A stretch of DNA of 22,530 bases from Promethearchaeota archaeon (GTDB lineage Archaea > Asgardarchaeota > Lokiarchaeia > Sigyniarchaeales > SOKP01), in assembly GCA_048941015.1 (NCBI GenBank), contig JBHLNZ010000050.1:1-22530 (forward strand), written 5' to 3'. The position numbers and the translations under genes are program-made. Numbering within the stretch: the stretch's first letter is position 1; each line of letters opens with the position of its first letter. This document shows, one piece after another, positions 6,542 to 21,344 of this stretch. The notes below the pieces were generated by a model. That model ran no database searches, was not told the DNA's origin, and saw only the letters and a program-made list of their open reading frames with translations.

Positions 6542-7984
6542 TTAAACATAACGCGCTCTTCTCCAATGAGGACTGTCACTAGTACGCAAATACCATCTAA
6601 GTATTAGTTCCTTTAATTCAGTTTTAATTTCTTTATATGATTTATCATCAATTAAATTCTCAACCTCATTTGCATCCTGGATTAAATCATACAATTCCTC
6701 TTTTTCGGCATCACGTATTATTAATTTCCATGATTGTGTTCTAACCATTGCTGAGCGAACAACAGATTGGGGTTTTTGAAGTGGTATATTGGTTTTATCA
6801 TAATAAATACCTACATGAGGAATATCCGGGCTTTTAATAACGTTTTCAAAACATTGTGGTTCATTTATATTATAACCTCCTTCAGCAAATACAGCCGTTC
6901 TGATTTTATCAATCTCTCCTTTAATAAGAGGAATAAGATTTTTTCCAAAATGAGTGTATGGAGTTTGAATTCGAGCAATGTCAAGAATAGTTGGGAAGAT
7001 ATCTATTGTTTGGATCAACTGGTTGCAGATTTTCTTTTTTGGAAAGACTCCTGGTATTTTTGCTACTAATGGTACTTTAATAAGACAATCTTGGAATGCA
7101 TTTGGCCATTTTTCAGTTAATCCATAATCTCCTGTGAAATCTCCGTGATCTGAAATAAAGAAAATAGCACTGTTTTCATATTCTCCTACTTCCTTGAGTT
7201 TATTTATTACCTCTCCTAATTGATAATCTACTCTAGTGATCATCCCATAATAAGTTGCAATAATTTCCTTGAAATCTTTTTCTTCAAGGTTCATTAATCC
7301 ATATCTTTCATACATTAATTTCATATATTCAGGTTTATCATCAAACTTAGATTGTATAGGTGCAGGGATGTTATTGCGATCATACATTGAAAAATATGGT
7401 TCTGCTACAGTATAAGGAGGATGTGGAAAATTTAAAGCAATGAATAGGCAATAAGGAGTATTTATATTTGAGTCTAAATATTTCAATACATCCCTAATGA
7501 TAAAAAAATCAATATCCTCTGATTCTTCTTTAGTTGTTTCACCATAATAAAATGATTTTCTTAAGTAATGGTCTCTGGGAAATGGATTTAACTTATAGAA
7601 CCGTGGTTTAATACGTATCTGTTTACCAATACTCAATTTTATCGAATCTTTATCAAATAAATCGTTTCTACCGGCCCAAATAACTTGATAACCCTTTTCT
7701 TTTAGAATCTTAAATAAATTTTCCTCATATGGTTGTAATAACTGATACAAACTCCTATGTCCATTAGAATGTACATATTGTCCAGTAAACATGCAACACC
7801 TTGAAGGTACACATACTGGATTAACACTAAAACAATTTGTAAATGCTAAACCCTCTTCAGCTAATCTGTCTATATTAGGTGTTTTGATATAAGGGTTTAT
7901 AGTACCTCCTAACGAAATAGTATCCCCTCTCATTGAATCTGGCATAAAAATTATAATATTGGGGGGAGTGTCTTTTTCAATCAT
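6542..7984 (-). CDS. Sulfatase-family hydrolase (S1, Cys-type)
   Basis: PNIIIFMPDSMR, TPNIDRLAEEG..F, formylglycine motif CVPSR..MFTG, FPHPPY, SDHGDF, ELYDL..D..E..NL. Confidence 0.93.
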   Translation of the reverse strand: MIEKDTPPNIIIFMPDSMRGDTISLGGTINPYIKTPNIDRLAEEGLAFTNCFSVNPVCVPSRCCMFTGQYVHSNGHRSLYQLLQPYEENLFKILKEKGYQVIWAGRNDLFDKDSIKLSIGKQIRIKPRFYKLNPFPRDHYLRKSFYYGETTKEESEDIDFFIIRDVLKYLDSNINTPYCLFIALNFPHPPYTVAEPYFSMYDRNNIPAPIQSKFDDKPEYMKLMYERYGLMNLEEKDFKEIIATYYGMITRVDYQLGEVINKLKEVGEYENSAIFFISDHGDFTGDYGLTEKWPNAFQDCLIKVPLVAKIPGVFPKKKICNQLIQTIDIFPTILDIARIQTPYTHFGKNLIPLIKGEIDKIRTAVFAEGGYNINEPQCFENVIKSPDIPHVGIYYDKTNIPLQKPQSVVRSAMVRTQSWKLIIRDAEKEELYDLIQDANEVENLIDDKSYKEIKTELKELILRWYLRTSDSPHWRRARYV

Positions 7985-12772: not shown

Positions 12773-14164
12773 ATGGTAAAAATTACTTTCATTGGAGCAG
12801 GATCTCTCGTCTTTGGAAAAAATGTACTTACAGATCTTCTTTTATTTCCAGCACTCCAAAAGAACACAATAATTTGTCTTGAAGATATTGACGCAAACAG
12901 ATTAGATTTAATGTTTCGGTACATTAAGAAGTTCAAAGAAGATTATTTTGACGATAAGGATATAACAATTGAAAAAACTACAAACCAAAGGAAAGCTATA
13001 GAAGATGCAAAATATGTTATTGACTCCATACATGTTGGTGGACTTGAAGCATTTAAATTGGATGTCGAGATTCCTTTTAAATATGGTGTTTCTCAAACAG
13101 TGGGAGATACGATTGGTCCAGGAGGTGTATTTCGCTTTCTTCGGGCAACCAGCACTTTAAAATCAATTTTGCAAGACATGCAAGAAGTTGGACATAATGC
13201 TGATAATGATGGCATAAAGCCTCTACTCTTAAACTACGCCAATCCAATGGCTATGAATACTTGGTTTTGTAATTCGATAGTTCCAGATTCCACAGTTGGC
13301 TTATGTCATGGTATTATTGGAACAGCAGAAACATTGAGAATTTGGGCTGGTTTAAAACGCGAAGAATTTAGCTATCTATGTGCAGGTATTAATCATATGG
13401 CGTGGTTTCTTGAAGTATGGTATAAAGATTCTTCTGTTCCGAATGCTAAATGGCAGAATGCGTATCCATTGATATATAAAGCTCTTGAAGACGATCCACA
13501 GAAAGGAGAAACTGAAAAAGTACGCATAGATATGATGAAAGCTGCAGGTGGATATTTCATGACAGAAGAATCCCGACATCTAAGCGAGTATGTACCATAT
13601 TATCGTAAACTTCCTAATTTTGTTGAAAAATTTGAGGGAAGACATCTTATAGGGTCATATGGTATAGAACAAGCTGCTGATTATTCAATGCAAGTAAAAC
13701 TACAGGGTAAATTTGAAAAGAAGCTTATGAATGAAATCAAGCGTTCTAAACTTCCTTATAAGAAAGTGCCTACCTATGAATATGCATCTTACATCATTAA
13801 TGCCATGGAAACTAATGAACCATACGGATTTAACGGGAATGTAATTAATAAACAAGCAGGTTTAATTACAAACCTTCCTAAAGGATGTTGTGTAGAAGTC
13901 CCTATTTTTGCAGATAACCATGGGTTGCATCCTCAAGGAGGAATTGTCTTACCAACTGTATGTCAAGCGTTATGTACTTCAAATATTATGGTACAAAAAG
14001 CAGCAGTAGAAGGCGTCCTTGAGATGAATCGAGAGAAGATTTATCATGCTATATTACTCGATCCTAATACCGCTTGCATGTGTTCAACAACAGAAATCCG
14101 TGAAATGGTTGAAGAGATGCTTAAAGCTGAAGCAAAGTGGATTCCTAAATTCCTAAGATCCTAA
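12773..14164 (+). CDS. Glycoside hydrolase family 4 (alpha-galactosidase/alpha-glucosidase, MelA-like)
   Basis: KITFIGAGS, QTVGDTIGPGG.FR.LR, NYANPM, GLCH, GINHMAW, HLSEYVPYY, LLDP.T. Confidence 0.93.
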   Translation: MVKITFIGAGSLVFGKNVLTDLLLFPALQKNTIICLEDIDANRLDLMFRYIKKFKEDYFDDKDITIEKTTNQRKAIEDAKYVIDSIHVGGLEAFKLDVEIPFKYGVSQTVGDTIGPGGVFRFLRATSTLKSILQDMQEVGHNADNDGIKPLLLNYANPMAMNTWFCNSIVPDSTVGLCHGIIGTAETLRIWAGLKREEFSYLCAGINHMAWFLEVWYKDSSVPNAKWQNAYPLIYKALEDDPQKGETEKVRIDMMKAAGGYFMTEESRHLSEYVPYYRKLPNFVEKFEGRHLIGSYGIEQAADYSMQVKLQGKFEKKLMNEIKRSKLPYKKVPTYEYASYIINAMETNEPYGFNGNVINKQAGLITNLPKGCCVEVPIFADNHGLHPQGGIVLPTVCQALCTSNIMVQKAAVEGVLEMNREKIYHAILLDPNTACMCSTTEIREMVEEMLKAEAKWIPKFLRS

Positions 14165-16960: not shown

Positions 16961-18286
16961 TTATTTAAAATTAGGTAAGTATTTTTTCTGTACTTCCATC
17001 ATCTCATTGAATATTGCTTCAGCCATTTCAAAACTACCACAATTCACATCAATTGCTAAGCAATTAATTGCAAATTGTTTTGATTCTTGAAGTATAGCTT
17101 CAACACATAAATTTTGAATAGAAGCTTCTATACGCAATATCGCCGCAAGATTCTCAGGAATATTACCTAATTTAATCCCATGAACTCCATCCTTATTTAC
17201 TATACCAGAACATTCAATTATTAAATCTTGAGGGAGATTTTCAATAATCTCATCATTTGGAATATTAACAGCAATCTCATATGAATTGCTATCTTCAATT
17301 ATTGCCTCTATAATAGGGATTGCTCTTTCTCCTGATGGACCTCCCATCAGCATACCTTTTTTAGGGTATTTACCTTTCTTTAGACGATTATAATATCTCG
17401 TTAATCGATCAATGCCTCCTTTATTCTCTTGTTCCATTCTTGTAATCCAATCTGTTAAATCTTGTTCTTTGGTGTATTGAGAACCAATCTGCAAATATTC
17501 ACAAATATGATTATCACCGACATAAGGAAACCATCCGAACCTTTGATAAAGCTCAAATGTGAGATCAGCAAAATGAAATCTATCCCACTTATCCTTAAAA
17601 TAATCCATACACTTTGAATTAAATTCAGGTAATAAATCAGCGCCAGATTTTAAATCTTCTAATCCCAGTAAAAAAGCAAAGTGATTTAACCCTCCCGTGG
17701 TTAACCGCATATCTTTTAGATCTCTATCCATCATAGCTGATAAGTGATGTGAAGTTAAAAGGCCTATTTGGTGACAGAGACCAAGCATTTTTAGCTTTGG
17801 AACCGCTCTTTTTAACGCTAAGCATATACGTGAGATGGGATTTGAATAATTTATAAAATACGCATTAGGACATATTCTTTCAACATCTTTAGCTATCTTC
17901 ACAATCTCAGGAATCTGTCTAGCACTGTGGAAGAATCCTCCAGCACCACCATTCTCTCCCATTCTTTCAGTAGTACCATGTCTTTTTGGAATTGTATTAT
18001 CCTGCCATCGTAATTCAAAACGATCTCCATGCTCAGTAGAATTAATAACAAAATTTGCTCCTTTTAGTGCTTTTTCCCTGTTAGGAGTGCTTTCAATATT
18101 ATATTTATTTCCAATTTTCTTGTTATCCTCAGATACTACTTCATAAACCATCTGTAACTTCTTTTCATCTATATCATGTAGTGTAATTGTAGAACCCGCT
18201 AAGGTTTTACTCAAGTTAAGATCTATAAACGTTGGAGGGCCAAACGCAGGACTACCTGCTCCAATTAGAACAATTTTAGTATCCAT
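16961..18286 (-). CDS. Glycoside hydrolase family 4
   Basis: KIVLIGAGS, GENGGAGG.FH..R, NYSNP, GLCH, GLNHF, GDNHICEY, VNIPN...I.NLP....IE. Confidence 0.92.
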   Translation of the reverse strand: MDTKIVLIGAGSPAFGPPTFIDLNLSKTLAGSTITLHDIDEKKLQMVYEVVSEDNKKIGNKYNIESTPNREKALKGANFVINSTEHGDRFELRWQDNTIPKRHGTTERMGENGGAGGFFHSARQIPEIVKIAKDVERICPNAYFINYSNPISRICLALKRAVPKLKMLGLCHQIGLLTSHHLSAMMDRDLKDMRLTTGGLNHFAFLLGLEDLKSGADLLPEFNSKCMDYFKDKWDRFHFADLTFELYQRFGWFPYVGDNHICEYLQIGSQYTKEQDLTDWITRMEQENKGGIDRLTRYYNRLKKGKYPKKGMLMGGPSGERAIPIIEAIIEDSNSYEIAVNIPNDEIIENLPQDLIIECSGIVNKDGVHGIKLGNIPENLAAILRIEASIQNLCVEAILQESKQFAINCLAIDVNCGSFEMAEAIFNEMMEVQKKYLPNFK

Positions 18287-19871: not shown

Positions 19872-21344
19872 TCAATCACAAGTGAGTTTCTTTGTAACTG
19901 GAGTGCAACCTAACGCGTCCTTGAAATTTCGCAAGTAATCCATATCAATCGGCTCTCTAGCATCTTTCCAAGCAAGCTCTAGTAGTTCTTTTGCTTTCTC
20001 AGGAGCCTTTGATATGATATTATTTGTCAAGTTAGGATCTTTTTCGACATCAAAAAGACATCCTTCTTCAATGTCCCAAATATAACCATTATACCAAAAA
20101 TGTCCATCGTAAACAACTACGGAACCGCCCCATGCTATTGAAACATGATCGTAATATTTTAATTCTTCATCGCGTACTATTTCCAATAGGTTCTTACCTT
20201 CCATATTTGTATCAGAAATACCACATACTTTACTTATTGTTGCAGGGATGTCATGATGATAACAGAATTTGTCACAAGTCTTACCACTTCCTTCTCCCTC
20301 TGGGAACCTGATCATCGCTACAAGATCAGCCACTTCACGTCCAAGAGGATTAGCTGCTTTTGCGATAAGGCCGTGTTCTCCTAGCATGTGACCATGATCA
20401 GAAACTACTACTATGATTGAATTATTCCATACATCGATTCTCTTGAGATAATCTATGAAATATCCAAACCAAGTGTCAACAAGTGATACTTCTGCTGCAT
20501 ACCTTGTTCTTAAATTTTTAAGTTCTCTTTCAGATATTAAACTCGCTGGTCCATATAATGAGTGGGCTATTTTTCTGCTTCCTTTTTCCCAATCAGGATC
20601 TTTTTCGTATAATCGGATATAATGAAGCGGTGGATACCAAGGTTCATGTGGATCAAAACATTCTACGGTCATAAATGCTTTACCTTTTAGAAGAACTTCA
20701 TAGTTCATATCCAACCATTCTCCAGCTGCGCGAAATACTTGGGCAGGAAACGTGTCAGCTTCAGAACGCCACCAATGCACATTTTGGAGGAAACGCCGCA
20801 TCATGTGTTGAGCGAATATTGTCCCTGCGATTATTCCATCCTCTTTAGCAGTGAGATAATCTTTAAGTACATCATCGGTTATCCGTGGTCCAGAAAGGAA
20901 TGCATCCTCCTCTTGCCCACGAATCCACTTCCATTGATGAAATCCTCGAGTAAAATTATAACCTGGTTTAAATTGATGATATACATCAGAAAATAATGCA
21001 GATACATATTTTTTACGATTAAATCTCTCTGCTAAAGTCTCCTGAGAATCTGAAATAGAACTCCAGCCAGGAGCCCCAAGAGCATCTGCAATAAAGTCTC
21101 CTCTCCCAGTCCTAGTCTCTCCCCTTTTATCATCATTAAAAGGAAACACCCGTTTTCCAGTATAAATAGCTTTCCGAGCCGGGAGTGTTGGTAATGATTC
21201 CGGATACATTCGTGTAAATCTTACGGATTCTTTTGCGAACAAATCTAAATTCGGCGTCTTTATCCATGGATTTCCATATGCTCCAACATGGTCCTGTCTT
21301 AGTGTATCGATTATAATTAATATCGCATTTACTATAATAACCAC
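19872..21344 (-). CDS. Sulfatase-like hydrolase (alkaline phosphatase superfamily) with Thr at the nucleophile position
   Basis: IIIDTLRQDH, KTPNLD.FA, PTLPARKAIYTG, FDPHEPW, RYAAEVSLVD.WFG, SDHG, LFDVEKDP. Exact start is uncertain. Confidence 0.9.
   Translation of the reverse strand: MVIIVNAILIIIDTLRQDHVGAYGNPWIKTPNLDLFAKESVRFTRMYPESLPTLPARKAIYTGKRVFPFNDDKRGETRTGRGDFIADALGAPGWSSISDSQETLAERFNRKKYVSALFSDVYHQFKPGYNFTRGFHQWKWIRGQEEDAFLSGPRITDDVLKDYLTAKEDGIIAGTIFAQHMMRRFLQNVHWWRSEADTFPAQVFRAAGEWLDMNYEVLLKGKAFMTVECFDPHEPWYPPLHYIRLYEKDPDWEKGSRKIAHSLYGPASLISERELKNLRTRYAAEVSLVDTWFGYFIDYLKRIDVWNNSIIVVVSDHGHMLGEHGLIAKAANPLGREVADLVAMIRFPEGEGSGKTCDKFCYHHDIPATISKVCGISDTNMEGKNLLEIVRDEELKYYDHVSIAWGGSVVVYDGHFWYNGYIWDIEEGCLFDVEKDPNLTNNIISKAPEKAKELLELAWKDAREPIDMDYLRNFKDALGCTPVTKKLTCD

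Follow-up and report, generated by a model that had tools for sequence, protein, structure and literature searches.

A clade of sulfatase-fold proteins with threonine in place of the formylglycine precursor

A clade of proteins that arose within the S1 sulfatase/phosphonate-monoester-hydrolase (PMH) lineage has replaced the formylglycine precursor with threonine. Thr nucleophiles are well known in the alkaline-phosphatase superfamily; the T-x-P-x-R sulfatase-fold clade is uncharacterised. What might its members do? The reading preferred here is that they are phosphoester, phosphodiester or phosphonate-monoester hydrolases with a Thr nucleophile that works independently of formylglycine, and the chances that this is correct are about even. 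The Thr is conserved, the Lys/His pair of the sulfatase GKxH motif is lost, the metal site and the oxyanion/leaving-group residues are retained, and members occur without known maturases. Together these observations point to direct, formylglycine-independent use of the threonine (T53).

The alkaline-phosphatase superfamily is a textbook case of how changes in nucleophile, metal and charge re-tune enzyme chemistry. A broad clade that combines the sulfatase/PMH scaffold with Thr for formylglycine is a ready-made evolutionary experiment, and it may be a source of sulfatase-fold catalysts that can be expressed heterologously without a maturase. There is also a consequence for annotation. Hundreds of 'arylsulfatase A-like' entries are probably not sulfatases, and these labels would inflate the sulfatase counts used for sulfated-glycan degradation in Asgard, poribacterial and planctomycete genomes.

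Sequences lacking Cys or Ser were excluded from SulfAtlas, and a TxNxE motif was noted in uncharacterised Thr-bearing PF00884 seed sequences (PMC5066984). Such TxNxE-type PF00884 proteins are the only ones for which the SulfAtlas paper mentions Thr, and a literature search found no paper on a Thr variant of CxPxR sulfatases. Literature, structure and profile searches found no characterised member, solved structure or curated family for the T-x-P-x-R clade, and hence no sign that it is a subfamily already characterised as ordinary sulfatases. The ESM Atlas offers only generic 'sulfatase' names.

The gene and its active site

The gene was studied within a window, which here means the whole 22,530-nucleotide stretch of DNA that was analysed. 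The gene and its key residues are located as follows, with counts from an alignment of 124 diverse representatives of the family.

19872..21344, minus strand: Thr-type sulfatase-fold gene (490 amino acids, GTG start, no signal peptide or membrane segment)
21306..21308, minus strand: D13, first metal ligand, in D-T-L-R (Asp in 124/124)
21174..21188, minus strand: T53-L-P-A-R57 in place of C/S-x-P-x-R (DNA read, alignments)
20976..20987, minus strand: D120-V-Y-H123 (D120 in 120/124, H123 in 98/124; alignments to 7oz8 and 5g2v)
20643..20648, minus strand: H233-E234 of F-D-P-H-E-P-W (H233 in 124/124, E234 in 121/124)
20394..20399, minus strand: D316-H317 of S-D-H-G, second metal-ligand pair (D316-H317-G318 in 122-123/124)
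20358..20360, minus strand: K329, aligned with the sulfatase/PMH active-site Lys after DHG (121/124)

An earlier, sequence-only reading had reported T-L-P-A-R with an ACA codon at the signature site, SDVYH in place of GKxH, and intact metal ligands. The site is as described. The minus strand reads cca ACA ctc ccg gct cgg, with the T53 codon at 21188-21186 and the R57 codon (CGG) at 21176-21174. HMMER alignments to 4uph, 6hhm, 5g2v, 7oz8 and 4upl put T53 on the formylglycine position, and the same alignments pair the Lys of GKxH with D120 and its His with Y122 (SDVYH, residues 119-123). The metal ligands in DTLR and SDHG (315-318) and the His of PHEP (232-235) are present.

Pfam recognises the protein as PF00884 (Sulfatase; 4.8e-23). 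Two other matches are weak and partial, namely SGSH_C (21.6 bits, below the cut-off of 29.3) and Phosphodiest (PF01663), the latter confined to the DHG region. No NCBIfam equivalog scored above cut-off. Comparison of N-termini shows that orthologues begin MVNAIL, 3 residues downstream of the window protein's GTG start. Both the window protein and its orthologues start directly at strand beta-1, and the window protein is predicted to be cytoplasmic.

An AlphaFold2 model of the window protein, built from the family alignment, has a pLDDT of 93.1 and a pTM of 0.94. Its top Foldseek match is 4uph, the Agrobacterium PMH, with carrageenan, ulvan and choline sulfatases next (TM about 0.68). The VIA structure search, which does not depend on Foldseek, gave Z 30-33 to S1 sulfatases over residues 3-474 (about 390-400 residues aligned), Z 30 to the YejM core, Z 24-27 to EptC, LtaP, LtaS, EptA and MCR-1, and Z 20-23 to PafA and nucleotide pyrophosphatase/phosphodiesterases (NPPs). 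No solved structure from the clade itself was found among the Foldseek, VIA and profile matches. The family profile matches S1 sulfatases with E about 1e-66. Therefore, by fold and profile scores, the family descends from the S1 sulfatase/PMH lineage and not from the LtaS/EptA branch. A C-terminal L-G-C-T-P-V motif (19872-19950, minus strand) is conserved among the Asgard orthologues, and the tail of the model there has a pLDDT below 50.

The likeness to S1 sulfatases and PMHs (4uph, 2vqr, 7oz8, 6hhm, 1hdh) covers the whole two-domain fold, the N-domain and the C-terminal subdomain. It includes the positions of the first Asp, the nucleophile, the Arg at +4, the 'PH' His (H233, the counterpart of the sulfatase active-site His), the D-H-G pair and the following Lys. 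Each of D13, R57, H233, D316, H317 and K329 is found in at least 97% of sequences. Like PMHs, the family has only one N-terminal Asp, and its metal pair is Asp-His, not Asp-Asn. The second Asp of the sulfatase 'DD' is Thr or Ser in the family and Gln in PMHs.

However, the family departs from S1 sulfatases and PMHs in several respects. The nucleophile precursor is Thr instead of Cys/Ser, and the Lys and His of GKxH have become Asp and Tyr/Pro. W94, R142-G-Q-E, E195 and E234 are family-specific, and there is a helical insert of about 80 residues (roughly 145-220). W94, E195 and E234 are new invariants, and D120 and E234 are new acidic residues; in the canonical Cys sulfatases of the same genome, the D120 position is Lys and position 234 varies. 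The other conserved positions in the 124-sequence alignment are [TS]14, R16, D18, P52, T62-G63, W94, R142-G-Q-E, E195, D290 and D365. D120, H123, D231 and E234 could be components of a new second metal site. A family-specific swap of Lys/Arg to D231 was also considered and dropped, because Asp or Glu occupies this position in canonical sulfatases of the genome too.

Has the site simply died, leaving a binding protein or pseudo-enzyme of sulfatase descent? In favour of this, the protein lacks both the usual nucleophile precursor and the Lys/His of GKxH. However, conservation across phyla reaches 97-100% for the metal ligands, R57, H233 and K329, and the Thr that took the precursor's place is itself conserved at 96%. 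Relaxed selection on the active site would not give such conservation, which makes a catalytically dead protein very improbable.

Threonine as a family trait

Another simple possibility is that the Thr is an isolated mutation, or a sequencing error, in an ordinary Cys sulfatase. Promethearchaeota/Lokiarchaeota orthologues (69-94% identity) head the matches of a database search, followed by homologues from bacteria such as Abyssobacteria and Armatimonadota (42-49%). L-P-T-L-P-x-R is found in all orthologues whose sequence covers the region, and the signature Thr is in all motif-bearing bacterial homologues too. An exhaustive search of 50%-identity cluster representatives gave 304 clusters below 1e-30. 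T-x-P-x-R is present in 107 of the best 150 of these, the rest of the 150 being mostly T-x-[QED]-x-R or fragments. Position 53 is Thr in 119 of the 124 representatives and Cys in 5, far more than chance would give, so it is not the case that close homologues all carry Cys or Ser. R57 is present in 123 and P55 in 104 (Gln in 15).

The codons tell the same story. Among 120 motif matches in the fetched DNA (some of the loci overlap), Thr is encoded by ACG 41 times, ACC 31, ACA 28 and ACT 19, and one further match has Ser (TCC). With all four Thr codons in use, selection acts on the amino acid. Thr is a family trait, and the probability that it is an isolated change or an error is close to nil.

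In a tree that combines 67 family members with six canonical Cys sulfatases and is rooted on the outgroup, the family forms one clade against the canonical enzymes (SH-aLRT 99). The Cys variants are not at its base. Five of them form a group (SH-aLRT 99) nested inside a 20-member Thr group (96), and one more Cys variant and one Ser variant are nested elsewhere. These variants retain D120, H123, E234 and the rest of the active site. Thr is thus ancestral in the family, with at least three later returns to Cys or Ser. It follows that a hydroxyl and a thiol can replace each other at this site. Such returns are consistent with a side chain that serves as a direct nucleophile or ligand.

Is a maturase needed?

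The genome from which the window comes (95% complete) encodes an anaerobic sulfatase-maturating enzyme (anSME) that scores above the curated cut-off (398 bits). Formylglycine-generating enzyme (FGE) was not found in it. The genome also encodes five canonical CxPxR sulfatases, one of them inside the window. A maturase is therefore available in this organism. However, family members also occur where none was detected. One of 25 other genomes with a family member, the complete 3.2-Mb chromosome of a Rubrobacteraceae bacterium (G041), encodes five Thr-family proteins, and neither FGE nor anSME was detected in it. No radical-SAM gene was present among 66 immediate same-strand neighbours of related loci. 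Taken with the conserved Thr and the loss of the GKxH Lys/His, these findings support maturation independence.

The Rubrobacteraceae chromosome also carries one CCPSR sulfatase (locus L129) despite the absence of a detected FGE or anSME. This hints at an unidentified maturation route or at an unmatured enzyme, and an unknown maturation system may thus exist there.

The sequence-only reading had proposed either a maturation-independent enzyme with different chemistry or a keto-modified sulfatase. The first proposal fares well as regards maturation. Its chemistry is another matter, because gene context offers no link to phosphorus metabolism (see below). The second is disfavoured by the lost GKxH pair and by the five members in the chromosome without FGE or anSME.

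What if the enzymes are nevertheless genuine sulfatases of sulfated glycans, with the Thr left unmodified or oxidised to 2-amino-3-ketobutyrate by the anSME? The genome has this maturase and five CxPxR sulfatases, the maturase recognition motif survives at P55 and R57, the gene lies in tandem with or near Cys sulfatases in several genomes and in the window, and the nested Cys variants keep the same active site. Against this stand the two observations that disfavour the keto form and the replacement of P55 by Gln, Glu or Asp in about 15% of members. The chemistry is also awkward. The GKxH Lys and His contact the formylglycine hydrate and catalyse its elimination step in Pseudomonas arylsulfatase and ARSA. 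anSME abstracts a C-beta hydrogen, which in L-Thr is replaced by the methyl group, so that L-Thr peptides are poor substrates. A ketone hydrate, unlike an aldehyde hydrate, has no removable hydrogen for elimination. Unmodified Thr would do no better, since a sulfo-Ser/Thr intermediate is a dead end in sulfatases, and Cys-to-Ser mutants are trapped as stalled sulfo-enzymes. On balance, a genuine sulfatase of either kind is distinctly unlikely.

A bolder variant is that the clade is a natural maturation-free sulfatase family, in which Thr (rarely Cys or Ser) acts on sulfate esters with the aid of D120 and E234. These two residues might hold a second metal or a water. This idea is a long shot. 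If true, it would be a second, formylglycine-independent route to sulfate-ester hydrolysis on the S1 scaffold. Alternatively, the clade may be a living intermediate between the sulfatases and the phosphatases of the superfamily.

Proposed chemistry

In contrast to the sulfo-enzyme dead end, unmodified Ser/Thr nucleophiles turn over phospho-intermediates elsewhere in the superfamily, in alkaline phosphatase (AP), NPPs, phosphonoacetate hydrolase (PhnA), LtaS, EptA and the mutases. Phosphoryl substrates are therefore favoured for T53, and we infer hydrolysis with T53 as nucleophile and a bound metal. The enzymes of the clade would require no maturase. One divalent metal would be bound by D13, T53, D316 and H317 and would activate the T53 hydroxyl, which would then attack the tetrahedral centre of the ester while R57, H233 and K329 hold its oxygens. 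The resulting covalent Thr-ester intermediate would be resolved by water. The substrates would most likely be phosphate mono- or diesters or phosphonate monoesters, with the ester probably on a sugar or another polar, cationic head group. This group could be recognised by the family-specific W94 and the acidic D120, E195 and E234.

One aspect that does not fit is the number of metals. The known Thr/Ser-nucleophile hydrolases of the superfamily (AP, NPP, PhnA) use two, which counts against the hydrolase reading. NPPs, PafA-type alkaline phosphatases and phosphonoacetate hydrolase belong to the same superfamily and share Thr and, as predicted from the residues, the Asp/Thr/Asp-His metal arrangement. 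However, their fold is more distant (Z 20-23), and in them a second metal site (Asp, His, His) is complete. No second site of the NPP/AP type is evident in the window protein, where K329 takes the position after DHG.

Perhaps, then, the enzyme is not a hydrolase at all. The phospho-Thr could be passed to an acceptor hydroxyl, making the protein a phosphoryl (or other group) transferase or a mutase. The models would be the single-metal Thr enzymes LtaS, EptA/MCR-1 and OpgB, or phosphopentomutase. The site does resemble the single-metal Asp, Thr, Asp-His arrangement of the PF00884 Thr transferases. The alpha/beta core of LtaS, EptA/MCR-1, EptC and YejM/PbgA superposes on the model (YejM, EptC and LtaS-type domains at Z 24-30), and these proteins share the Asp-His metal pair and, presumably, an unmodified Thr at the equivalent position. 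The cytoplasmic location predicted for the window protein would suit a mutase. However, the LtaS/EptA group consists of membrane-anchored transferases in which Glu is the first metal ligand and the Thr is not followed by x-P-x-R. Their membrane domain is absent from the window protein, which is soluble. S1 sulfatases score higher and cover the C-terminal subdomain as well, and R57, H233 and K329 make up the sulfatase/PMH hydrolase set, not the LtaS/EptA set. In addition, no conserved partner or acceptor-making gene was found among the examined loci. A transferase or mutase is therefore unlikely, if not strikingly so.

Gene context and substrate

The window gene heads a minus-strand run followed by genes for a flavodoxin, an alpha/beta hydrolase, a GH4 glycosidase, a second alpha/beta hydrolase and an epimerase. 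Further left are a Cys sulfatase, a GPH/MFS transporter, an aldehyde:ferredoxin oxidoreductase, a short-chain dehydrogenase/reductase (SDR) and a second GH4. Three of these lie as follows.

6542-7984, minus strand: canonical Cys sulfatase, NPV-C-VPSR-CCMFTG (PF00884 2e-44)
12773-14164, plus strand, and 16961-18286, minus strand: GH4 (NAD/Mn-dependent) glycosidase paralogues, converging on the window's middle

The Cys sulfatase lies 12 kb from the Thr protein and adjoins the GPH/MFS_2 transporter, the aldehyde:ferredoxin oxidoreductase, the SDR and a GH4. Each GH4 in the window has an alpha/beta hydrolase or an SDR close by.

Can this neighbourhood guide the assignment of function? It was rejected for that purpose because, within one genus, orthologues that are about 80% identical stand beside unrelated genes, among them those for citrate synthase, fumarase, a CDF transporter, ferredoxin reductase and PGA_cap. 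Over 77 loci, the only recurrent neighbours reflect Poribacteria lineage synteny (ASL, OMP decarboxylase), Acidobacteriota TonB-dependent receptors and scattered sugar genes. Gene context is therefore not conserved and has at most a loose carbohydrate/sulfatase flavour. No link to Pst, Pho or Phn genes, or to phosphate/phosphonate metabolism, was seen among the neighbours at these 77 loci.

Canonical Cys sulfatases lie no more than 8 kb away in about ten loci, and the family gene is in immediate tandem with one at three (L064, L096 in the window's genus, and L056). At L064:1394-5564, from the uncultured bacterium SKW194, a Cys sulfatase (QPV-C-APAR) stands between two Thr members with gaps of 21-24 bp. 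Given these tandems, and the Cys sulfatase and glycoside genes of the window, a sulfated substrate fits as well as a phosphorylated one. Because the gene lies near sulfatase and glycoside genes, the most plausible substrate class is a sulfated or phosphorylated carbohydrate. Clear twin-arginine signals are found on many bacterial members and would be compatible with the export of folded, metal-loaded proteins.

Distribution and paralogues

The family pattern [VIL][DE]xF[DST]PHEP[WF] marks at least 600 loci in species-representative genomes. Among the matches listed are Poribacteria, Acidobacteriota, Planctomycetota, Chloroflexota, Actinomycetota, Bathyarchaeota, Hodarchaeota and Hadarchaeota, and the clade also spans Asgard archaea. 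In the tree, the Asgard orthologues group together on a long branch that arises from within bacterial sequences (Abyssobacteria, Armatimonadota), which suggests inter-domain transfer. Only 7 of 24 genomes in the genus carry the window gene. This is consistent with a gene acquired from bacteria that is accessory in the genus.

The window's genome has a second Thr-family member (contig C1:47023-48465, minus strand; locus L093/L102) with the signature SLP-T-IPFR and 38% identity. At the D120 position this paralogue has Ser, and three further genomes of the genus encode orthologues of it. A sulfatase-fold protein of a different Thr type (C35:1488-2936, minus strand) gives the genome's best PF00884 score. 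Its signature is C-T-H-P-S-F, without Arg at +4, and His replaces the Lys after DHG. This type may represent a further Thr clade, also uncharacterised, whose active-site set differs, and a Bathyarchaeota genome (G059) has five paralogues that resemble it.
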